A DNA stretch of 64,000 bases from a virus. The stretch lies in IMG/VR virus record IMGVR_UViG_3300042542_004122, positions 8,162 through 72,161 of that record; one strand, given 5' to 3'. A model generated the notes under the pieces. The model did not search any database and was not told the DNA's origin. It was given only the letters and a program-made list of their open reading frames with translations. This document shows positions 2,262 to 39,289 of this stretch, piece after piece. Position numbers and translations under genes: made by a program. Each line of letters starts with the position of its first letter. Position 1 is the stretch's first letter.

Positions 2262-2708
2262 TCAGAACTTTAGAGCAATACCAGCGGTAACGCTCTCTCT
2301 AAGATCGTTGTTATCAACGGAGTTGACCCTACGATAACGTAGATCTAGGTCTAGAGTCTTAGTTAGTTCGGTACGAACTCCAGCTCCTAGGACATAGAGA
2401 GGCTTACTATCTAGAGACTCTAGATCAGCCCCTAGACCTACTAGAACATAGGGAGTAATCCCAGTTGTAGGAATAGTAGCCTGAGGCATTACATGACCGT
2501 AAAGGTTATGCACCTTGCTGTCGACACGATACTCATAAGCACCCTCTACACGAAGATTCTTATTTAGATCTGTTCCAACAGCTAGGCCTAGGGTATTTTC
2601 CCTAGCTCCCTCTACCTGAGTTCCTAGATTACCAGCAACATATACGTCACCAGCTAGGGCAGAACTTGCAGCTAGAGAAGCTACAAGCGCGATTACATAC
2701 TTATTCAT
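2262..2708 (-). CDS. outer-membrane beta-barrel protein (OmpA/Opa-like)
   Basis: Signal peptide, amphipathic beta strands, LRVEG, PYVLVGLG, C-terminal Phe. Confidence 0.8.
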   Translation of the reverse strand: MNKYVIALVASLAASSALAGDVYVAGNLGTQVEGARENTLGLAVGTDLNKNLRVEGAYEYRVDSKVHNLYGHVMPQATIPTTGITPYVLVGLGADLESLDSKPLYVLGAGVRTELTKTLDLDLRYRRVNSVDNNDLRESVTAGIALKF

Positions 2709-2730
2709 TTATTTTTTCTTTCTCCTGATT

Positions 2731-2805
2731 TGGAAGCCCTGACCGGATTTGCACCGGCGTTGACGCCTTGAGAGGGCGTTATCCTAACTACTAGATGACA
2801 GGGCC
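2731..2805 (-). tRNA. tRNA-Glu(CTC)
   Basis: Anticodon arm ACGCC-CTCTCAA-GGCGT, CCA end. Confidence 0.85.
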
Positions 2806-2809
2806 GTTT

Positions 2810-2901
2810 TGGTGGAGGCTACTCGACTTGCACAAGTTGTCCGGACTACCCCTACTGTTTAAGGACGCCCGTTTTACAGACGGGTGTAGGGAATAGCCTC
2901 C
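2810..2901 (-). tRNA. atypical D-armless tRNA-Tyr(GTA)-like RNA with V-loop pseudoknot
   Basis: Acceptor GGAGGCT/AGCCTCC plus ACCA; anticodon arm CCCGT-CTGTAAA-ACGGG; T-arm ACTTG-TGCAAGT-CGAGT. No D hairpin, and CCCTAC is complementary to GTAGGG in the 30-nt variable region. Confidence 0.75.
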
Positions 2902-2912
2902 ATGTTATTTAC

Positions 2913-2941
2913 ATTTTATCAAAAGCTTAACCATATAGCAA
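2913..2941 (-). promoter_or_regulatory. promoter TTGCTA-N17-TAAAAT for the Tyr-like RNA
   Basis: Read directly, just upstream of the RNA. Confidence 0.6.
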
Positions 2942-2942
2942 C

Positions 2943-3362
2943 TTATTTTTTATCTAAGTTAGACCAGTTAAGTATTTGATCTAAGGTCGTCGAGTATAAA
3001 CCATATTTTGTTACTAGTTTATGAACTCTAGGGGCGATGGTATGTCTGAATAACATCTCCTCTTTGCGACTTTTTTCGACTAGAGAATAAGGTTTACCGG
3101 CAATATAAGCTCTCGCTAATTCCGTTGCGCGAGATTCATTTCTGACATCCCATCTACGATGGGTTATCAACCCTAATCGTTTAATATGCAGACCATATAG
3201 TTCACGATGTTTTTTATATACTGTATCGGAATGAAGGTCTTCAGTTATTTGATGATAGACCTTATAGTGGTCGATCTGTTTTTTAAGCTTGCGCTCTTCT
3301 CGTTTAATAATGCTAGGCTCAAACGCAAGATGCTTAGCTTTAATTTTTAGTTCTATACTCAT
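2943..3362 (-). CDS. basic hypothetical protein, possible RNA-binding partner
   Basis: 139 aa, K/R/H-rich (LKIKAKHL...HRRWDVRNESRATELARAYIAGKPY); GAGGAG RBS. Confidence 0.85.
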   Translation of the reverse strand: MSIELKIKAKHLAFEPSIIKREERKLKKQIDHYKVYHQITEDLHSDTVYKKHRELYGLHIKRLGLITHRRWDVRNESRATELARAYIAGKPYSLVEKSRKEEMLFRHTIAPRVHKLVTKYGLYSTTLDQILNWSNLDKK

Positions 3363-3377
3363 AGAATCTCCTCTTTT

Positions 3378-3443
3378 TTATAGTTTATAGTTGGAAAAGA
3401 GAAGATTAGGAGGCCCTCTGGCCTAGGCTGTCTGCTTAAACAT
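3378..3443 (-). promoter_or_regulatory. amber-interrupted leader peptide / translational attenuator (MFKQTA*ARGPPNLLFSNYKL*)
   Basis: GAGGA RBS and ATG at 3443; in-frame TAG at 3423-3425; RGPP codons; AATCTTCTCTTTT can pair with AAAAGAGGAGATT over the downstream SD. Confidence 0.7.
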
Positions 3444-3456
3444 GTTTCCTCAAATT

Positions 3457-3530
3457 TGGTGCCTCTCAGGGGATTTGAACCCCTCTACTCCGTTTTAGAG
3501 ACGGTCGCATAGCCACTCTGCCAGAGAGAC
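3457..3530 (-). tRNA. amber suppressor tRNA (anticodon CTA)
   Basis: GTCTCTC/GAGAGGC acceptor plus ACCA, D-arm GGCAGAGTGGCTATGC, anticodon arm CCGT-CTCTAAA-ACGG, T-arm AGGGG-TTCAAAT-CCCCT. Confidence 0.85.
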
Positions 3531-3540
3531 GTATTTAAAT

Positions 3541-3616
3541 TGGCTCCCCCGGTTCGATTCGAACGAACGACATTCTGATTAACAGTCAGATGCAACTACC
3601 GCTGTGCTACAGGGGA
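3541..3616 (-). tRNA. tRNA-Asn(GTT)
   Basis: Cloverleaf, loop CTGTTAA, CCA. Confidence 0.9.
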
Positions 3617-3623
3617 ATATAAA

Positions 3624-3698
3624 TGGAGCGGACGATGGGGATCGAACCCACGACATACACGTTGGCAACGTGCAACTCTACCGCTGAGCTACGTCCGC
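3624..3698 (-). tRNA. tRNA-Gly(GCC)
   Basis: Cloverleaf, loop TTGCCAA, CCA. Confidence 0.92.
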
Positions 3699-3699
3699 A

Positions 3700-4212
3700 T
3701 TAATTTTGTGGTAAAAGAGAAGTAGGAGGACCTAAAGTAGTCTGCCCCCACCTATCTGATGGCCACATAGGAAGAACTGTTTGAGGTTTAGACTTTGCTT
3801 TAATAAGCGCAGCCATTTCCTTATATCCATCCGCAGTAGGATGAATACCGTCCTTACCTAATTTAACTGTCTCAATTAGTGTATCACTAAACATTGTTGA
3901 CAAAGATTGCACAACATAGTTAGCTTCCTTATTACAGAATATATCATTACAAGGAGGATTAATCCAAATAATATTTGAAGATTTAATCTTATCTCGTACA
4001 GATAGAATTTGCAATAACTGTTCTTGTAGAGTTAACCCTTTATCATTTGTTCCTAGGCTAACTACTACAGTAGCAGCTTTTAGATCTACATGACCGAAGG
4101 TTTTACTCCAGTTAGAACTACTAATACCAACAACACTATAATTTTTACATTCAGGATAAGCCATACTTATCCCTTTGGCAATACTATCGCCTAGAATAAT
4201 GCATTCTAACAT
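3700..4212 (-). CDS. SGNH/GDSL hydrolase
   Basis: LGDS, LGTND and DGIHP blocks. Start moved to MLEC because the track's extension overlaps tRNA-Gly. Confidence 0.85.
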   Translation of the reverse strand: MLECIILGDSIAKGISMAYPECKNYSVVGISSSNWSKTFGHVDLKAATVVVSLGTNDKGLTLQEQLLQILSVRDKIKSSNIIWINPPCNDIFCNKEANYVVQSLSTMFSDTLIETVKLGKDGIHPTADGYKEMAALIKAKSKPQTVLPMWPSDRWGQTTLGPPTSLLPQN

Positions 4213-4215
4213 AAT

Positions 4216-4289
4216 TGGAGCGGAGTACGAGATTCGAACTCGTTTAGCCAGCTTGGAAGGCTGGAGCACAACCTATATGCCAACTCCGC
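4216..4289 (-). tRNA. tRNA-Gly(TCC)
   Basis: Cloverleaf, loop CTTCCAA, CCA. Confidence 0.9.
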
Positions 4290-4298
4290 GTAATACGC

Positions 4299-4333
4299 TT
4301 AAATATGTAGTAAGATACCTACTACATATTTAA
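4299..4333. repeat. 14-bp inverted repeat between tRNAs
   Basis: TTAAATATGTAGTA-N7-TACTACATATTTAA. Confidence 0.8.
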
Positions 4334-6189: not shown

Positions 6190-7215
6190 TTACTTCATTG
6201 GTGTTAGTGTAAGAGCATTTTTACGCACAAGTTCTCTCTGTGTTTTCGTCAATGGCACTAGACCCTTTTTTTCAAGGTATCCATTCTCAGCCATGGAACG
6301 ATCTGAAACATACTCAGCTATGAAATCTCTAATGCCAGGAATAACTTCAGCATGAGCATTCTTGACATAGACAAACAAGGAACGAGCGACTGGATATTTC
6401 TGTGTAGAGATATTTTCAAACTCTGGCTCTACCTCATCAATCTTTAATCCAATAAGCTTGTCTACGTTTTCTTCCAAGAACGAGTATCCAAAGACTCCAA
6501 TAATTAGATTGTTCTTGTTAGAAACCAGTCTCTGAACAATTAGATTATCATTTTCACCCGCCTCAATGAATTTGCCATCTTCACGAATTGAAGAGCAGGC
6601 AGCTTGCTTCTGTCTTGCATCCTGCAGAGACTTGATTTCATCGAAACTCTTGCAGCCATGATCCATTACCATTTCAACAAATGCATCGCGCGTCCCAGAA
6701 GTTGGAGGAGGACCCATGACTTCAATTGGAGCGTTTGGTAGTTTAGGATCAATCTCATTCCATTTCTGGTAGAAATTATTTACAAGCTTACCGTCCTTTG
6801 GCACCTGACGAGCCAAAGCAAGCCAAACGTGTTCGCGTGTCAAACTAAAAGGCTTTACATCCTTGCGAACCGCAAATACGATGCCATCATATCCAATCAT
6901 TACTTCAGTAATGCTCGTTACACCATTTTTGGCGCAAAGTTCAATTTCTGATTTTGTGATCGGACGAGACGCATTTGAAATGTCTGGGTGTTGTGTTCCT
7001 ATACCTGCACAAAACAGACGAAATCCACCACCCGTTCCAGTAGATTCTACAATAGGCGCCTTCAGACCTGATGTTCGACTGAAATTTTCAGCAACCGTTG
7101 TAGTAAATGGAAAAACTGTCGATGATCCAACAGCACGAATTTGATCTCTTGCGTTTTGTGCATATGCCGTAGTACTAATTAATAAAATTGTAGTAGCTGT
7201 GATTAGTAATTTCAA
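6190..7215 (-). CDS. pstS: phosphate ABC transporter substrate-binding protein
   Basis: Signal peptide, GSSTVFP, STGTGGG, GPPPTSGTRDAF, YPVARSLFVYVK. Confidence 0.95.
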   Translation of the reverse strand: MKLLITATTILLISTTAYAQNARDQIRAVGSSTVFPFTTTVAENFSRTSGLKAPIVESTGTGGGFRLFCAGIGTQHPDISNASRPITKSEIELCAKNGVTSITEVMIGYDGIVFAVRKDVKPFSLTREHVWLALARQVPKDGKLVNNFYQKWNEIDPKLPNAPIEVMGPPPTSGTRDAFVEMVMDHGCKSFDEIKSLQDARQKQAACSSIREDGKFIEAGENDNLIVQRLVSNKNNLIIGVFGYSFLEENVDKLIGLKIDEVEPEFENISTQKYPVARSLFVYVKNAHAEVIPGIRDFIAEYVSDRSMAENGYLEKKGLVPLTKTQRELVRKNALTLTPMK

Positions 7216-7692: not shown

Positions 7693-8210
7693 AGTTCGCT
7701 CATTGCTAACTTGGTAAAATCAGTGGCCTGCTTGCAAAACTCTTCCCTGAGAGGCTCTTGATCTGGCAGAGTAGAGTTAAGAAATTGCTTGCGTATCTTT
7801 CTATAAATGGTTTTAAAAATCTCACCATGAGGAGTGTCCCTAAAGTAATTAACCTTATACAGATAGAACTGACTAGCATGGGCTATCTCGTGACACAGAA
7901 TCATCTTTAGACCGTCCATCTTGTTATCTGTAAAAAATCCACCGATATCAGGATCTTTATCAAATGACTTATACTCATGAACTCTATATGCTTTTACAGA
8001 TGAGTAACTACTGCCGTATCGCTGCATAGCGATATTAATACCAGGGCCAGAAGAATACATTCCGCCTCGAGAAGTAACTCGATGTGGAGACCAATCAAAT
8101 TCAACCTTAGTCAGTTTAAATCCTTTCCAGACTCCGCCCTGAGAAATAGTCCAATCCTCAATATCTTTGATATACTGACGAGCTTTATCTTCACAAACTA
8201 TCTTTAGCAT
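7689..8210 (-). CDS. SprT-like zinc metalloprotease
   Basis: HEIAH followed by PHGEIFK; leaderless ATG 6 nt after the -10 box. Confidence 0.75.
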   Translation of the reverse strand: MLKIVCEDKARQYIKDIEDWTISQGGVWKGFKLTKVEFDWSPHRVTSRGGMYSSGPGINIAMQRYGSSYSSVKAYRVHEYKSFDKDPDIGGFFTDNKMDGLKMILCHEIAHASQFYLYKVNYFRDTPHGEIFKTIYRKIRKQFLNSTLPDQEPLREEFCKQATDFTKLAMSEL

Positions 8211-8252: not shown

Positions 8253-8570
8253 CTAAATACTAAAAGACTTCCCACACCCACATCCAGCTTTTTGATTCGG
8301 GTTTTTAAGTTTCAAACCGCTGCTTCCAATAGTCTGTTCGTAATCTAACTCTGTCCCAGCTACATATAGTAAACTCATACTGTCTACAAAAAACTTACAA
8401 GTTAAAAGATCTATCTCAAAGTCATCAGGTTCTGCACTATCTACAAATTCATAGTTATACACAAAACCAGAACATCCTCCGCCCTTGACTTCTAATTTAA
8501 CCGCCTGCTTATTGTTTTCTTTGCATAGATACCTAATATAATCTCTAGCGATGGGAGTTAAGCTAAACAT
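8253..8570 (-). CDS. iscA: IscA/HesB A-type Fe-S carrier
   Basis: GGGCSG and NPNQKAGCGCGKSF. Confidence 0.9.
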   Translation of the reverse strand: MFSLTPIARDYIRYLCKENNKQAVKLEVKGGGCSGFVYNYEFVDSAEPDDFEIDLLTCKFFVDSMSLLYVAGTELDYEQTIGSSGLKLKNPNQKAGCGCGKSFSI

Positions 8571-10056
8571 TTTGTTTTTTGTAAATTGTATTGCCTACTA
8601 CCAACACATCTATGTCTGTTGATTTAAATAAGTTCATGGCATTCTCAATCCAGCCTGCTATAGGTTTTCCTGCTTCGTTAAGGCTTGTGTTTAATAATAA
8701 AGGGCACCCCGATAGTTCATGGAAAACTTCTAACAATTTTCTAAAAGCATAGTCAAACGATTCATTGACAGTTTGAGCGCGACAAGTTCCGTCGACATGA
8801 GTTATAGCTTGTAAATTATCTTTTTGTGTTGTGCCTAGATAAAGCATATACGGATTTTCAAAATCTAGATCAAAATATTCTTTGCCATACTCTTGCAAAA
8901 CACTAGCTCCAAAAGGTCTGTAGTACTCTCTATTTTTAACCCTATTAATTATATCTTTTCCATTTTTAATTCTTGGGTCCATTAGTATAGATCTGTGCCC
9001 TAATGCTCGTGGACCTATCTCACCATGTCCTTGATACCATGCAACAATTTTACCTTCATTTAAAAATTTAGCTGTTTGATATATGGTATCAATAGTAGGT
9101 TGGCTATGTGGAGACTGATCAGACTGCATGAATGGATATCTAGACATATTAAACTTAGGTAAATTTTTTGATTGTCTAAATAGTTCAAGTGTTCCAAAAG
9201 TTAATCCCTCATCGCTGCAATGTGGATATATTATGAGATTGGGGTATTTTTTCTTTAACAACGTATTCCAAACAACATTTTGTGCTACTCCACCTGAATA
9301 GCCTATTCTCTCATGCGGTTTGAAATGTTTTTCAAAAAATTCTAGTAGTAATTCGCCTATTCTAAAATGAATAGTGTGAGCAATATCTAATTTTTGTTGC
9401 AGAGGTAATGTTCTATCAACAAAATATAAATGATCGTCAGATGCAACTGTCCATTTCCAAGGTCTGTCTTTACGCATACCTTTAACTGCAGTGCTAGTAT
9501 AGTTCATGTTGTACTTTAAAAGATTTTCATAATGTTTCAAATTTAATCTACCATAACTTTGCCAACCCATAAGTTTACCCGCAAGATCAAGGCCATGACC
9601 TTCAATATCTAAATAATTTGCTATTATCCCCAAACCGTCGCCAAAACTTACGCCAGAATTAGAGGTAAGTATTTGGCTTATAATTTTATCATCTCTAAAA
9701 ATGCTACACCAAAGATCAGCGTTATCCCCTAATCCATCAACTACTACATGAGCATCTATTTTTTCTTTTTCTAATATCTCTACACTATATGCATGCTTTC
9801 TATGATGCCCTTGATACTTTTGATGTTCTGAGTAGCTAATATCTAAAAAGTTACCATTATATTTATTTTTACAATAAACAGCAATAAAATCTTGAATTTG
9901 AAATTCAACAGCGGACTTGCCAGTAATATAAAATCCAAAATGTTTATTTTGTAAAAGCCTTTCAAATTTTAAATAGCCTACTTTAGTATTAAAATAAGCT
10001 ATGGAAGCATCATGATAAGGATGTGATGCTACTATGCTTAACATAATTTCTTGCAC
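8563..10056 (-). CDS. NodU/CmcH-family carbamoyltransferase
   Basis: HDAS, HHRKHA, AGKLMG, EIGPRALGHRSIL, KNREYYRPFG, HVDGTCRAQ, LNTSLN. Confidence 0.92.
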   Translation of the reverse strand: MQEIMLSIVASHPYHDASIAYFNTKVGYLKFERLLQNKHFGFYITGKSAVEFQIQDFIAVYCKNKYNGNFLDISYSEHQKYQGHHRKHAYSVEILEKEKIDAHVVVDGLGDNADLWCSIFRDDKIISQILTSNSGVSFGDGLGIIANYLDIEGHGLDLAGKLMGWQSYGRLNLKHYENLLKYNMNYTSTAVKGMRKDRPWKWTVASDDHLYFVDRTLPLQQKLDIAHTIHFRIGELLLEFFEKHFKPHERIGYSGGVAQNVVWNTLLKKKYPNLIIYPHCSDEGLTFGTLELFRQSKNLPKFNMSRYPFMQSDQSPHSQPTIDTIYQTAKFLNEGKIVAWYQGHGEIGPRALGHRSILMDPRIKNGKDIINRVKNREYYRPFGASVLQEYGKEYFDLDFENPYMLYLGTTQKDNLQAITHVDGTCRAQTVNESFDYAFRKLLEVFHELSGCPLLLNTSLNEAGKPIAGWIENAMNLFKSTDIDVLVVGNTIYKKQNV

Positions 10057-26764: not shown

Positions 26765-27746
26765 AGCAAGAATAGGAGATGTAACAGAGCTTAACGGACA
26801 GGCGTCTGTTACAAGAAATAAAAAAGAACAACCTATAGGCATTCGAGACGGTATCGAATCTATGGACACTATCTCTACTAAAAATTCAAAGGTTAGGATA
26901 GATTTTATTGACAAAACCCACGTTAGTGTAACTGAGCATAGTGACTTAGAAATAGATGAGTATGTTTTTGATCCTTCTAGAGATTTAGCAAAATTATCTA
27001 TGAAAGTATCTTCTGGCACTGTACAATATGCAAGCGGACTTTTAGCAAAAAAAGTAGGAGCTGTAGATGTTAGAACTCCTACTGCTTCTATAGCAGTTAG
27101 AGGTACAGAATTTTCTATGAGTGTCAATGAGTTAGGTAAAAGTTTGATTATGCTTTTACCTAACCAAGATGGAAGCACAGGAGAAATTACCGTTAGCACA
27201 GACGTTGCAAGCGTTATTCTAAATAGAAGTTATCAAGCTACTATAGTGACTAGCAGCTCTAGTCCGCCTTCAAATCCACTTATTCTTAATATGTTAGGCA
27301 GAGTAATAAATAATGATTTACTGCTGTCCATGCCGAAATCTGTAGAAACAGTTTCTAATGTCGAAAAAGAACAAGGTCCATTGGATTTTGACCTTAAATT
27401 TGTAGACGTAAATATGCTGGATAAAGATCCTCTTAAATTTGAAGAACTGAATGTAGACCTGCTAAAGTCTGATTTTTTCAATACTAGATTAAACAATATA
27501 GATTCAATTTTTGATAATTTTAGTGAACGAGATGGTCAAGTGACTGGATATAATCCAACTACACAAATTAATACAGTAGTAGAAGACACTACCGTATTAA
27601 CCCAAAGATTAGATATTTCTATATTTTCTGTAAAAGTTAATAAAGATTATGGATTAAAAATCGAATACAATGGCGATGGTATCTCTGCTGCGTTTGTAGC
27701 TGGAAATATGCAATCCAACAGTATTTTAAAGGTTAAGCAAAAATGA
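26697..27746 (+). CDS. FecR-domain protein
   Basis: IGDVTELNG, F.DKT...TEHS.L.IDEY, VRTPTASIAVRGTEF. Confidence 0.85.
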   Translation: MQKLSILLLTVIISQLLYLKQTEARIGDVTELNGQASVTRNKKEQPIGIRDGIESMDTISTKNSKVRIDFIDKTHVSVTEHSDLEIDEYVFDPSRDLAKLSMKVSSGTVQYASGLLAKKVGAVDVRTPTASIAVRGTEFSMSVNELGKSLIMLLPNQDGSTGEITVSTDVASVILNRSYQATIVTSSSSPPSNPLILNMLGRVINNDLLLSMPKSVETVSNVEKEQGPLDFDLKFVDVNMLDKDPLKFEELNVDLLKSDFFNTRLNNIDSIFDNFSERDGQVTGYNPTTQINTVVEDTTVLTQRLDISIFSVKVNKDYGLKIEYNGDGISAAFVAGNMQSNSILKVKQK

Positions 27747-29797
27747 AAAAAGTAATCATTACTTTACTAACAATCGCAATAGGTATCGGTATAAAGATAT
27801 ACGAGCCTAATATAGTAGAAATTTTAAAACTCAAAGGATTTGATCAGTTATTAACTTTAAATGATACTAAAACTAGTGAAACAGCCGTAATAATAGAAAT
27901 TGATGAGCCTACAATAGAGCAACAAGGTCAATGGCCTTGGCCAAGAGATTTAATAGCAGATGGTATTAAAAAAGCTGTAGATCATGGAGCTGAGATTGTA
28001 GTTCTATATCCGCTTTTTGCAGAAAAAGATAGATTTAATAAAGATGAAATACTTAAAGAGGTTATAACAAATAGTAAGGTCATAGGAACGCAATCTGCTT
28101 CTTTAAAAGGGAAAGGAGATCTAGTAACTAGAGGTTTTGCTATCGTAGGAAATACAGAAGAACAATGGTTTTATAGGTATCAAAACGGAATAGGTAGTAT
28201 TTCTGAAATATCTAAAACAGCTCAAGGTATGGGTATGATTACTACAGTCCCAGAACTAGATGGAGTAACTAGAAAAATACCTTTAGTGTTAATGGTTGGT
28301 GATAAGTTCTATCCTTCTTTACCTTTAGAAATAGCAAGAGTAATACATGGGGCTAAAAATTATAGAGCAAAAGTTACTGAGGCGGGATTATCTAGCATAT
28401 ATATCAATAAGAATTTTTCCATAGAACCAGATAAGCGCGGAGAGTTATGGATAGATTGGTCTTGGACCTGGCCTATTAAAAGTTGGAAAGAGGAATCTTG
28501 GGGAGACTTGACAGGTAAAATAGCTATTTTAGCTATAAACGTAGAGGGAATTACTAATACTATTGCAACCCCTGCAGGCACTAAACTAGGTCATGAAGTT
28601 AGTTTAGCTGCATGGGAAACTCTATGGAACGATAATAAAATAACTAGACCTTATTGGGCAGATTTAACTGAGCTTTTATTTTTCTGTCTGTTGATAGCAG
28701 TCAGTGCTCTCGTTGCTGATAAAGGAAATAAATTACTCGTAGGAGTATGGGGAGTAGTTATACTACTAGTTCCATTTAGTATAAGTTACTACGTCTTTAA
28801 TCAATATCAATATTTAACTGATTGGACATTTAGTTTAGTATTTGGAACACTGTTCTATGGATATGTCGTGTATTCTAGATTTGTTAAAGAGTTTAAACTA
28901 AAGCAACAAATCAAGAAACAATTCCAATCTTATCTTTCAAAGGCTCTTGTGGAAAAACTCCAGAAGAATCCAGAGCTATTAAAGCTTGGCGGAGATAGCA
29001 GAGAGCTGTCAATCATGTTCACAGACGTTCGTGGGTTTACCTCTATCAGCGAACACTATGGTGAGAATGTTCAAGGATTAACCCAAATCATGAATCGCTA
29101 TATGACAGCGATGACTGCAAAAATTCTTGAGAATGAAGGAACGCTTGATAAGTATATTGGCGATGCACAGATGGCATTTTGGAATGCGCCGCTTGATGAC
29201 AAGCAGCACGCCAAGAATGCAGTTAAAACAGCTTTAAGTATGTTAGGAGATTTAGATGAATTCAACAGAAGTATTGCGGCTGAAGGCGTCCCTCCTTTCG
29301 GCATGGGCCTTGGTATCAATACCGGTATGGTTGTTGTTGGAAATATGGGCAGCGATCAACGTTTCGATTATACTTGCCTCGGTGATGCTGTCAATCTTGC
29401 TAGTCGTCTCGAAGGACAAAGCAAACCGTATGGAGTCAAATTAGTCATTGGTTCAAAGACAGCAGAGTATGTTTCAGATGAATATTTTATATTAGAACTG
29501 GACACTATTGCGGTAAAAGGTAAAAAACAAGGAGTTAATATCTATACTGTTTTAGGCACTAATAAAGAGATAGATGATTTAGGTTTTTCTTATGCAAGAA
29601 AAGATCATAACGATATGTTAGATTATTATAGAAATAAAAACTTCACTAGTGCTACCGTATTGTGCGAAAGATTAACGAAAGCATTTAAAGGCGATATGAA
29701 ATCATACTACGAAATGATGATGGATCGTTGTCGTGAGTATACAAAAACCCCGCCACCAGCTAACTGGGACGGGGTTTACAGAGCTACTAGTAAATAG
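27743..29797 (+). CDS. CHASE2-domain class III adenylate cyclase
   Basis: GQWPWPR and DGVTRKIPL (CHASE2), TM helices, FTDVRGFT, DKYIGDA, GDAVNLASRLE. Confidence 0.92.
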   Translation: MKKVIITLLTIAIGIGIKIYEPNIVEILKLKGFDQLLTLNDTKTSETAVIIEIDEPTIEQQGQWPWPRDLIADGIKKAVDHGAEIVVLYPLFAEKDRFNKDEILKEVITNSKVIGTQSASLKGKGDLVTRGFAIVGNTEEQWFYRYQNGIGSISEISKTAQGMGMITTVPELDGVTRKIPLVLMVGDKFYPSLPLEIARVIHGAKNYRAKVTEAGLSSIYINKNFSIEPDKRGELWIDWSWTWPIKSWKEESWGDLTGKIAILAINVEGITNTIATPAGTKLGHEVSLAAWETLWNDNKITRPYWADLTELLFFCLLIAVSALVADKGNKLLVGVWGVVILLVPFSISYYVFNQYQYLTDWTFSLVFGTLFYGYVVYSRFVKEFKLKQQIKKQFQSYLSKALVEKLQKNPELLKLGGDSRELSIMFTDVRGFTSISEHYGENVQGLTQIMNRYMTAMTAKILENEGTLDKYIGDAQMAFWNAPLDDKQHAKNAVKTALSMLGDLDEFNRSIAAEGVPPFGMGLGINTGMVVVGNMGSDQRFDYTCLGDAVNLASRLEGQSKPYGVKLVIGSKTAEYVSDEYFILELDTIAVKGKKQGVNIYTVLGTNKEIDDLGFSYARKDHNDMLDYYRNKNFTSATVLCERLTKAFKGDMKSYYEMMMDRCREYTKTPPPANWDGVYRATSK

Positions 29798-38125: not shown

Positions 38126-38311
38126 GTGTTTCAACTAAAACATAACTACTTTAAAGGTCAAGTCGTAGAATTTAGTTATAATTACTGGTCCATCTATAAT
38201 GAGGCTGGTAAGCTAATTCTGACTACTAAAGATAAAAAATATGCTGAGGCTAAATTGCAACAACTAAATAAGGCTTTAGCAGACAAGATCTCGTTGATAG
38301 CAGCGAAATAA
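38126..38311 (+). CDS. hypothetical protein
   Basis: 61-aa ORF; 3' end overlaps the tmRNA acceptor piece. Confidence 0.4.
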   Translation: MFQLKHNYFKGQVVEFSYNYWSIYNEAGKLILTTKDKKYAEAKLQQLNKALADKISLIAAK

Positions 38312-38556
38312 GCATACTGGACACGGGGGCAGTGCCCGTCATCTCCACCATAAATATGTCGATTAGTAAACATTGACATATTTATAATGGGGATGAATTA
38401 GGATCGACAGGTGTGTAAAGGTTGAAGTAGAGATAGGTGCGCGAGCGACCTCTAATCGCAAGAAATCAATAAATGCTAACGATAATAGCATCGAAGAGAT
38501 CCGCCTAGCGGCATAACTTCTGCGGTATGGGCTCCACCGTATTACCCAACGGGCCT
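38270..38556 (+). ncRNA. ssrA: circularly permuted two-piece tmRNA
   Basis: Acceptor piece ends ...GACACGGGGGCAGTGCCCGTCATCTCCACCA at 38350; hairpin spacer; coding piece starts GGGGATGAATTAGGATCGAC at 38389; tag ANDNSIEEIRLAA* at 38475-38516. Outer ends approximate. Confidence 0.9.
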
Positions 38557-38578
38557 ATTCCTTTTAGAAAGATTTTTA

Positions 38579-39289
38579 ATGTTTATTTATTGGAGAGTAT
38601 GCGAATTACAAAAATCTATTAGCTACGTTAATAGATGGAAAAACTATAACAAAACAGACATCTTAAAAAGATGCTGGTTATCAGTTCAGAGTAGCGTATC
38701 TCCAGACGATCAAATCTATCTAATAGAAGATAATGTAACCCATGAGACTTTAACTTGGTTAAGAGAGACGTGCAAAGCAAAGCTAAGTATCATACACGTA
38801 CCAGAACATGCATGGGAATATCATCAACATACAGTAACCTTGATAGATACGCTAGAATCCTCTGTTAAACAGTATGAGCAAGATGTTCATCTTATTTTAG
38901 AAGATGATTATCTGTTTACTCCAAACGGATTAAATACTTTTAAGTTGTCCGCTGAAAATTGGAATCAAGGATTTATAGCTCCTTACGACTATATTGATAG
39001 ATATAAAGAAATAAAACCCACTCAAGTTCTTTTAGGCCCAGATAGACATTGGCGTACAGTAGATAGTATTACTATGACTGTAGCAGCCAAAGGTTTTATC
39101 TGGGTTAAGTATTTAAAAGACTTAAAAGATGCAGCTCCTACCAGCAATGATAAAGTCTTCGATAAGATTTTATCTGAAGTGCCATGTATCTCTCCAATGC
39201 CTTCTTTATGCAGTCATCTTACCGAACATCATAATAGTCCTTACATGGATATAGAAAATATCTGGAAATATTACGAGAACAATCTATGA
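38579..39289 (+). CDS. GT-A fold glycosyltransferase
   Basis: LILEDDYL DxD-type motif. Confidence 0.75.
   Translation: MFIYWRVCELQKSISYVNRWKNYNKTDILKRCWLSVQSSVSPDDQIYLIEDNVTHETLTWLRETCKAKLSIIHVPEHAWEYHQHTVTLIDTLESSVKQYEQDVHLILEDDYLFTPNGLNTFKLSAENWNQGFIAPYDYIDRYKEIKPTQVLLGPDRHWRTVDSITMTVAAKGFIWVKYLKDLKDAAPTSNDKVFDKILSEVPCISPMPSLCSHLTEHHNSPYMDIENIWKYYENNL

Follow-up and report, generated by a model that had tools for sequence, protein, structure and literature searches.

In SecM–secA, MifM–yidC2 and ErmCL–ermC, the Shine-Dalgarno (SD) sequence of the next gene is hidden in a hairpin, which opens when a ribosome stalls on the leader peptide. In prfB, the gene for RF2, an early in-frame stop codon senses termination efficiency by way of a +1 frameshift. 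Here we analysed a phage locus on the minus strand of a 64,000-nucleotide (nt) stretch of DNA, called the window below (positions 8,162 to 72,161 of IMG/VR record IMGVR_UViG_3300042542_004122), where a tRNA with the anticodon CUA, a short leader interrupted by an in-frame UAG codon (the gate) and the gene P0001 follow one another. The window lies within a 72-kb freshwater phage contig, which has 36.8% G+C, 28 tRNA genes and a transfer-messenger RNA (tmRNA). Our analysis indicates that the leader is probably a translational attenuator that reports stop decoding by the adjacent suppressor tRNA, with P0001 on only if this tRNA decodes the stop. Like the SecM, MifM and ErmCL type, it has an SD-sequestering hairpin (13 base pairs) and a predicted stall site at which the ribosome would overlap the anti-SD arm. 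The signal would differ, in that a suppressor tRNA encoded just upstream decodes a stop codon, in place of secretion or an antibiotic. In prfB the frameshift takes place inside the same gene and RF2 is sensed, whereas here the suppressor tRNA would be sensed.

The RAPP/RGPP arrest peptides (ApdA, ApdP, ApcA, Streptomyces) are likewise encoded by a small open reading frame (ORF) directly upstream and in the same orientation, with Arg-(Ala/Gly)-Pro-Pro near its end, according to the accessible part of the report on them (PMC12992588). In the same source, RAPP and RGPP bring about a robust arrest, which EF-P does not relieve, with RGPP the strongest, and RSPP is partly permissive. The leaders described here are 6-30 residues long and have neither a signal sequence nor a link to Sec or YidC. 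The N-terminal localisation signal of the founding members is absent from the window leader, in which six residues before the gate leave no room for one, and P0001 has no Sec/YidC-related domain. The motif also lies behind a stop codon here and would be translated only after suppression. Furthermore, most relatives of the window locus use [R/K/H]-Pro-Pro-stop, without the Ala/Gly spacer.

Pausing at termination has been described for YbeL-PP in E. coli, where Pro-Pro-stop leads to A-site and +12 cleavage of the mRNA and to tmRNA tagging (PMC3834316, accessible text). Pro-Pro-stop is likewise present in 86 of 98 relatives of the window leader but not in the window leader itself, where AAT follows. 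As presented in that text, pausing in YbeL-PP is a quality-control problem in an engineered protein, whereas the pause here is apparently regulatory. PepNL of E. coli, as described in the part available of PMC11890864, is also a short upstream ORF whose output is set by readthrough and peptide-mediated arrest. Its logic is inverted, since PepNL arrests at UGA and readthrough by Trp-tRNA cancels the arrest, whereas here readthrough would be needed and a dedicated suppressor tRNA is present. In the C-terminal tail of mammalian AMD1, readthrough ribosomes likewise pause at a second in-frame stop (PMC13025110, in part). That system is eukaryotic, pauses 384 nt downstream and acts on its own mRNA, with neither a suppressor tRNA nor an SD hairpin in the text available.

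The 'code change module' of recoded gut phages combines a suppressor tRNA, an aminoacyl-tRNA synthetase along with a release factor, and thus likewise clusters a suppressor tRNA with stop-decoding genes (Borges et al., 10.1101/2021.08.26.457843, in part). In those phages the in-frame stops are in late genes, whereas the phages considered here use the standard code. The words 'leader', 'sensor' and 'readthrough' have no occurrence in the accessible text of that preprint (10.1101/2021.08.26.457843). A paper on related phages (PMC10087341) does not mention suppressors. A suppressor-gated leader of this kind was not found described in the literature searched, which covered main texts and not the supplements of phage-genome and recoding papers, where these tRNAs could be listed. 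In none of the closest known systems are a dedicated suppressor tRNA, a gate codon to match it, an arrest motif and an SD hairpin brought together, and the putative design seems to be previously undescribed. If it is true, stop decoding by a dedicated suppressor tRNA encoded in cis is an added input for arrest-peptide attenuators. It bears on the roles of suppressor tRNAs in standard-code phages and on the monitoring of a genetic-code switch, and two cultured phages with such a leader, BUCT-ZZ01 and DSS3_MAL1, make it testable. The element, about 80 nt long, would convert suppression efficiency into expression and could therefore also be useful as a reporter or selector in genetic-code expansion.

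The leader and the hairpin in the window

The tRNA at 3530-3457 (minus strand) was called by ARAGORN and scored 48.8 bits with the Rfam tRNA model, against a gathering score of 29. Both predict a tRNA fold, and the anticodon CUA is complementary to the amber stop. The label 'Pyl' given to it by ARAGORN stems from the anticodon alone. The CCA end is encoded, and the leader ATG is 14 nt away. Read directly from the sequence, the five bases AATTT sit between the tRNA end and the SD of the leader (GAGGA, 3451-3447), which lies 3 nt 5' of the ATG. Another tRNA-like sequence, resembling tRNA-Tyr(GUA), was noticed at about 2809-2896 (minus strand); it has a CCA end and an anticodon stem-loop near-identical to that of the suppressor tRNA, and was called neither by ARAGORN nor by the Rfam tRNA model.

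The leader starts at 3443-3441 and encodes M-F-K-Q-T-A (3443-3426) before it meets the gate codon UAG (3425-3423), the next base being G. The post-gate codons GCC AGA GGG CCT CCT (3422-3408) encode A-R-G-P-P and thus hold an RGPP motif. Directly after them comes the 5' or anti-SD arm of the hairpin, AAUCUUCUCUUUU (3407-3395), which in the window lineage doubles as the codons N-L-L-F-(S) of an extended leader ORF. The loop (3394-3378) is made up of the remainder of this ORF (..S-N-Y-K-L) and its UAA at 3380-3378. The 3' arm, AAAAGAGGAGAUU (3377-3365), holds the SD GAGGAG of P0001, and only CT separates it from the ATG of P0001 at 3362. P0001 (2943-3362, minus strand) is the putatively controlled gene and encodes 139 residues. 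The full leader reads ATG TTT AAG CAG ACA GCC TAG GCC AGA GGG CCT CCT AAT CTT CTC TTT TCC AAC TAT AAA CTA TAA. Its translation is MFKQTA-stop-ARGPPNLLFSNYKL-stop, i.e. MFKQTA-UAG-ARGPP-NLLFSNYKL-UAA. The UAA lies on the same strand 15 nt 5' of the P0001 ATG and in phase with it.

The earlier note on this DNA had proposed that the 13 nt directly after the Pro-Pro codons pair 13/13, with one G:U, with the segment that carries the downstream SD, and that the stop codon of the leader abuts that SD. Direct reading of the sequence confirmed both points. The segment AATCTTCTCTTTT (3407-3395) pairs over its whole length with AAAAGAGGAGATT (3377-3365), the ribosome-binding site of P0001, and the leader stop at 3380-3378 is followed immediately by the 3' arm at 3377. 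The RNA folding that had been suggested as a check was also favourable, as RNAfold recovered 12 of the 13 arm pairs in both the minimum-energy and the centroid structure. A scan for 13-base-pair hairpins, which allowed one G:U at most and loops of 3-40 nt and used 20 local shuffles as background, recovered this hairpin and gave a chance expectation of 0.5 hairpins of such quality per 64-kb strand. Two small local hairpins were also predicted by RNAfold. AGGCC-AGAG-GGCCU (3424-3411) includes the last two gate bases and the first Pro codon and is lineage-specific, being present also in the relative L027, and UCUAU-GAGU-AUAGA (3365-3352) has the A and U of the P0001 ATG within its stem.

Consensus scans, weak evidence on this point, found no intrinsic terminator-like or promoter-like site between the tRNA and P0001. 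Contigs from RNA libraries span the tRNA, the leader and P0001 unbroken (X15 record 1, 2900-4281), which is not proof of transcription, and RNA ends are not visible in them. In an Rfam scan of 2700-3800 the tRNAs alone were found, and the leader matched no family. A match to U6 on the opposite strand (25.5 bits, below the gathering score of 44) was treated as chance.

Conservation of gate, peptide and hairpin in related phages

We collected loci around P0001 homologues from IMG/VR, from JGI and other metagenomes, from one contig of a metagenome-assembled genome and from GenBank phages, namely Synechococcus phage BUCT-ZZ01, DSS3_MAL1 and Phage NCTB. The first set comprised 61 loci (57 from IMG/VR with upstream sequence, the three GenBank phages and the window), and a leader was found in 59 of them, in 46 distinct versions. 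All sets together came to 141 loci, 139 with at least 110 nt of upstream sequence; IMG/VR and JGI overlap, and 'distinct' was therefore counted by sequence. A leader of the same plan is present in 134 of the 139 loci, as 98 distinct sequences. The shared plan is an SD with an ATG, 1-10 codons of variable sequence, an in-frame gate stop, 2-5 codons, Pro-Pro, and an arm that pairs with the SD of the P0001 homologue. The relatives likewise have an SD-like run of purines 5' of the leader ATG, although the parser made this a requirement, and Pro-Pro is universal by the search criterion. L068, which lacks upstream sequence, and L114 and L135, which have less than 110 nt of it, were dropped; the 81 nt of L114 show TAG-IRPP-TAA. 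The leaders of the two cultured phages are MGGDAS-stop-INLKPP-stop in BUCT-ZZ01, whose host is S. elongatus PCC 7942, and MKS-stop-IRPPP-stop in DSS3_MAL1.

The plan is specific to this position. In the 72-kb genome the pattern ATG..TAG..Pro-Pro-stop is absent, and its RxPP form occurs once, at the leader, where shuffles expect 0.12. In 26 related loci scanned on both strands (145 kb), the pattern was found in 23, once per locus and always in the homologous place. A scan of all IMG/VR with the commonest leader core gave 40 matches. Seventeen of them had a leader with an SD and an ATG, in every case 5' of a P0001 homologue; the remaining 23 lie in unrelated contexts.

The gate is in frame with the downstream Pro-Pro in all 98 distinct leaders, and it is TAG in 97 and TGA in one. 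The spacing from gate to Pro-Pro is 2, 3, 4 or 5 codons in 33, 50, 8 and 7 sequences, respectively, and varies in whole codons only. The residue 5' of Pro-Pro is basic in 83 of 98. Arg occurs in 50 (CGA, CGC, CGT, AGA, AGG), Lys in 25 (AAA, AAG) and His in 8 (CAT, CAC), so that nine codons of three families with no RNA motif in common are used. All four Pro codons occur at each of the two Pro positions. The whole-codon spacing and the variety of codons for the basic residue and for Pro argue that selection acts on the encoded peptide. These data suggest that the post-gate codons are selected as amino acids and that the gate is read through. A purine follows the gate in 97 of 98 leaders, whereas among the TAG stops at ORFs of 100 or more residues in this genome, 7 of 9 are followed by a pyrimidine. 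A 3' purine favours amber suppression in classical context studies.

The gate and the adjacent tRNA correspond to each other. A TAG gate is accompanied by an adjacent tRNA with the anticodon CTA in 74 distinct leaders, and the lone TGA gate by one with the anticodon TCA. In 22 of the first 23 loci the tRNA(CUA) ends about 95-130 nt 5' of the P0001 homologue, and in the remaining one it lies downstream. The TGA gate belongs to the metagenome loci L149/L151 (about 118-303), which have a tRNA with the anticodon TCA, the leader ML-TGA-VYAPP-TAA and an 11-base-pair hairpin over the SD. On this comparison L149/L151 is a natural re-targeting of the putative switch from UAG to UGA. In L154 the leader runs in frame into P0001, and in L122 and L129 the leader stop TGA overlaps the P0001 ATG; all three have RSPP. 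By this layout, translation of P0001 is predicted to be tied to readthrough even more directly in L154, L122 and L129.

Pro-Pro, sometimes Pro-Pro-Pro, is directly followed by a stop in 86 of the 98 distinct leaders. R-[A/G/S]-P-P is present in 11, and 10 of these lack the adjacent stop, including the RGPP of the window, with one exception each way. RAPP was found in L078, L083, L085 and L088, and RSPP in L122, L129 and L154. The second stop is TAA in 75, TGA in 19 and TAG in 3 of the 98, and the scarcity of TAG is expected if a TAG there would itself be read through. We infer that Pro-Pro is an arrest signal, by analogy with published pause signals, which both classes of leader match. More generally, the comparison points to a compact arrest signal, [Arg/Lys/His]-Pro-Pro-stop, in peptides of 6 to ~17 residues. 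Because arrest at RGPP is not relieved by EF-P, the EF-P control proposed in the earlier note may show no effect in the window leader. As a side observation, this phage encodes a tmRNA at 38258-38607 (plus strand) with the tag ANDNSIEEIRLAA, and BUCT-ZZ01 has one (L024, 2385-2803) with the tag ANDETFSMALAA. They may be relevant because Pro-Pro-stop pauses and readthrough both yield tmRNA substrates. In five complete relatives the RF00023 model gave nothing above the cut-off; one 319-nt match reached 40.3 bits, and the rest look tRNA-like.

The hairpin is found in the relatives as well. In 38 of the 46 distinct minimum-energy folds the SD pairs with the segment right after Pro-Pro under a strict criterion, and most of the others pair with an offset. 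Of the two G's in the SD core, one is paired in all 45 and the other in 44 of the minimum-energy folds of 45 relatives. Cognate arm duplexes have a mean energy of -12.8 kcal/mol compared with -7.5 for non-cognate ones, and none of 5000 permutations reached the cognate mean. In sequences anchored at the SD core, the flanking pair positions each show 3-4 types of Watson-Crick pair; examples of the paired arms are CUAAUAUUGAU/AUCAAUAUUAG, UUCCGUUG/CAACGGAG and CCUUAGUU/AACUAAGG. As judged from these comparisons, the arms of the predicted hairpin co-vary and are conserved through compensatory changes. A second, outer helix between the post-gate codons and the first P0001 codons is tentative. The difference in energy is small, with -3.66 kcal/mol for cognate and -3.00 for non-cognate pairs (0 of 5000 permutations reach the cognate mean), and it is seen in the folds of L032, L057 and L060.

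Compared with its relatives, the window copy is a derived variant. The window sequence CCTCCTAAT is one base shorter than the consensus CCNCCGTAA of most relatives, so that Asn (AAT) follows Pro-Pro and the ORF stays open across arm and loop until it meets the UAA next to the SD. The close relatives L001/L027, L086 and L087 have the same extended form, and L083 has a similar one independently, with the ORF ending 15 nt before the ATG. Since the window lineage has RGPP, an elongation arrest would replace the termination arrest of the majority. A degenerate second copy of the leader was noticed at 3708-3745 (minus strand), in the 3' end of a GDSL-lipase-like gene (3700-4213). It reads GCAGAC..CCTCCTA..CTTCTCTTTT and encodes the C-terminal tail ..GQTTLGPPTSLLPQN before the stop; L001 has it too. 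This copy and the leader form a direct repeat around a block of three tRNAs, Gly-Asn-suppressor. The region 2900-4300 is near-unchanged in many lake-water metagenomes and is also present in contigs from riverine RNA libraries. The riverine variant has 13 differences in P0001 and one in the 92-nt leader region (3394 G>A, plus strand), by which the U-run of the 5' arm is longer.

Proposed mechanism and alternative explanations

The positions of the ribosome and the arm fit this arrangement. Toeprint data place the front edge of the ribosome ~12 nt beyond the A-site codon. The same distance appears in the accessible text on Pro-Pro-stop pausing (PMC3834316). Counted from the first gate base, the median distance to the start of the arm is 19 nt, and it exceeds +13 in 88 of 95 sequences. 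Counted from the first base of the A-site codon at which arrest is inferred, the median is 3 nt, and the start falls within +12 in 95 of 95. For the window, the ribosome is computed to reach about 3413-3411 when UAG occupies its A site, short of the arm at 3407, and to cover about 3407-3397 when it is arrested with the second Pro codon there. The earlier note had held that a ribosome terminating at UAG would barely reach the anti-SD strand and that one stalled at RGPP would cover it, and the predicted geometry agrees with this in the window and in most of the 95 sequences. Its broader proposal of a secM–secA type of attenuation gated by an amber codon is supported by the conserved and co-varying elements of the relatives.

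We therefore consider a sequence of readthrough, arrest and derepression, which would run as follows. The tRNA(CUA), the leader and P0001 are presumably transcribed together, given the 14-nt gap and the scans in which promoter- and terminator-like sites were not found between them. Ribosomes would start at the leader's own SD and ATG and meet UAG after six codons. If RF1 terminates translation there, the front edge would lie ~12 nt past the first gate base with the arm 18 nt away, and the hairpin would keep the P0001 SD closed. If the suppressor tRNA reads UAG, the ribosome would proceed and arrest. In most relatives the arrest would take place at [Arg/Lys/His]-Pro-Pro-stop as slow termination after Pro-Pro, and in the window at Arg-Gly-Pro-Pro during elongation. 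The arrested ribosome would cover most of the anti-SD arm, by which the SD would be freed and P0001 translated. In the window lineage, a ribosome escaping from the arrest would pass the arm and end at the UAA abutting the SD, and coupling of termination to reinitiation may add to expression.

Several observations weigh against this scheme. The change of gate and anticodon to UGA/UCA is seen in a single lineage only. No tRNA was found within the upstream sequence at hand (at most 330 nt) in 21 of the 98 distinct leaders, and the nearest upstream tRNA is a non-suppressor in 2 of the 98. No isoacceptor is consistently closest to the suppressor tRNAs; of 20, the best match was Leu in 6, Thr in 4 and others in 10, all at ~70% identity. 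Five of the 139 loci have no leader, namely L026 (a distant NCTB homologue), L067, L130, L145 and L164, and L130 has instead an ungated ORF ending ..APP-stop. The adjacent stop is missing in the window copy, in which the mechanism may differ from that of the majority. The nascent peptides are very short at the arrest point, 6 to ~17 residues, and our literature search found no published test of [R/K/H]-Pro-Pro-stop in peptides of this length. The energy of the whole 107-117-nt fold is unremarkable (z = -1.4 and -1.7; 21 and 12 of 200 shuffles are as stable). As the fold energy of a single copy is weak evidence, what carries the case is the placement of the helix over the SD together with its conservation in relatives. 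The co-variation was obtained from our own structure-anchored scripts and is uncorrected for how closely the sequences are related. With RNAalifold, a MAFFT alignment of 45 leaders gave zero consensus pairs, which we attribute to arms that do not line up in it, being offset by 1-3 columns from one lineage to another.

The phages are also not recoded, so that the other purpose of the suppressor tRNA lacks an explanation. A reading of TAG as a sense codon was ruled out, since none of the large ORFs of the window is split at TAG and TAG ends 17 of 124 ORFs. The large-terminase frames of five complete relatives (167-174 kb) are free of stops, and a 40-kb late region of one relative (G001) is 93% coding under code 11, with 1 of 40 ORFs ending in TAG.

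If arrest is left out of the scheme, a stall is perhaps unneeded, and any ribosome past the gate may open the arm briefly. Transit through the anti-SD arm, or ordinary termination at or in it, would then open the hairpin, and Pro-Pro would slow termination slightly or be kept for other reasons; in the window, termination and reinitiation at the UAA 15 nt before the ATG would be allowed as well. Some lineages do dispense with the adjacent stop (the window, L027 and L083 by extension, L122 and L129 by overlap, L154 by fusion), so that coupling alone can serve. We consider this explanation unlikely, because it is hard to square with the strict [R/K/H]-Pro-Pro before the stop in 86 of 98 leaders and with R[AGS]PP in 10 of the 11 sequences that have no adjacent stop, both motif types being documented pause or arrest signals. 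The gate itself could also be denied. UAG would then be the plain stop of a six-codon upstream ORF, and the sequence behind it would be kept as RNA, for processing of the tRNA 3' trailer, for mRNA stability or as a hairpin that masks the SD constitutively. The ordinary use of TAG as a stop in this genome and the standard code of the phages speak for this, as does the likeness of CCNCC to an anti-SD, which pairs with the SD in a few relatives (L025, L079). Such an RNA-only role is nevertheless extremely improbable in view of the whole-codon spacing between gate and Pro-Pro, the nine codons of three families that share no RNA motif, the gate that becomes UGA exactly where the anticodon is UCA, the in-frame fusion of leader and P0001 in L154, and the purine behind the gate, which is atypical of the long ORFs' TAG stops.

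A gate that is read through might also act negatively. Arrest after readthrough would then lead to A-site or +12 cleavage of the mRNA and tmRNA rescue, or in the window to a blocked SD, so that suppression would lower P0001 or cut the transcript. Cleavage and tagging are known for Pro-Pro-stop pauses in E. coli (PMC3834316, in part), both this phage and BUCT-ZZ01 encode a tmRNA, and the UAA of the window leader abuts the SD. In most relatives, however, the arrest site lies 44-62 nt 5' of the ATG and cannot occlude it. An SD-masking hairpin would be pointless if the stalled state were also off, and a +12 cut would sever the anti-SD arm from the SD and thereby activate the gene. Negative action is thus very unlikely, and activation of P0001 by readthrough and arrest remains our preferred explanation.

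P0001 and other features of the genome

At least 1317 homologues of P0001 are present in metagenomes, all of them unnamed. The protein is basic and had no credible match in Pfam, PHROG or PADLOC. A sequence profile search of the PDB gave 0 matches, and Foldseek against the PDB gave nothing at E <= 0.001. The AlphaFold2 model (predicted local distance difference test score, pLDDT, 88; predicted template modelling score, pTM, 0.78) is confident and consists of helices throughout, residues 3-36 and 53-87 making up a long helical hairpin, and the invariant residues are largely basic. In a wide VIA-align search the best Z was 8.3, for the helical hairpin of CHMP4B, among 862 chains with Z >= 5, which reflects a generic helical hairpin. 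The ESM Atlas had no usable feature match, and the template modelling score by structure was below 0.5. Longer, fused forms of P0001 were not found, which is weak evidence.

A role of P0001 in managing suppression or termination by feedback, or as a delay timer, seems the most likely because its translation would depend on the neighbouring tRNA, but it is a matter of speculation. A part in controlling or exploiting suppression is favoured because the sensor is linked in cis to the tRNA that it would sense. It is conceivable, although we regard it as doubtful, that tRNA, leader and P0001 together make up a self-contained unit that senses and controls the decoding state, in which P0001 would be made only when the suppressor beats the release factor and would then act back on termination or suppression. 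Such feedback could work as a commitment switch or else as a homeostat, with P0001 binding, for example, to the ribosome, a release factor or the tRNA. If this sensor and controller is real, it would be the first case of a natural regulatory circuit gauging nonsense suppression. The circuit would also be found in standard-code phages at the proposed intermediate step to stop reassignment, where evolution can re-target it from UAG to UGA. Our comparison singles out this unannotated family as a candidate partner functionally tied to suppression.

The window also contains several host-like genes. They include a CHASE2-adenylate/guanylate cyclase (27743-29797, plus strand) and, on the minus strand, a PstS-like phosphate-binding protein (6190-7215), a Bax1-I family membrane protein (635-1387), an outer-membrane beta-barrel (2262-2708) and a carbamoyltransferase (8563-10056).

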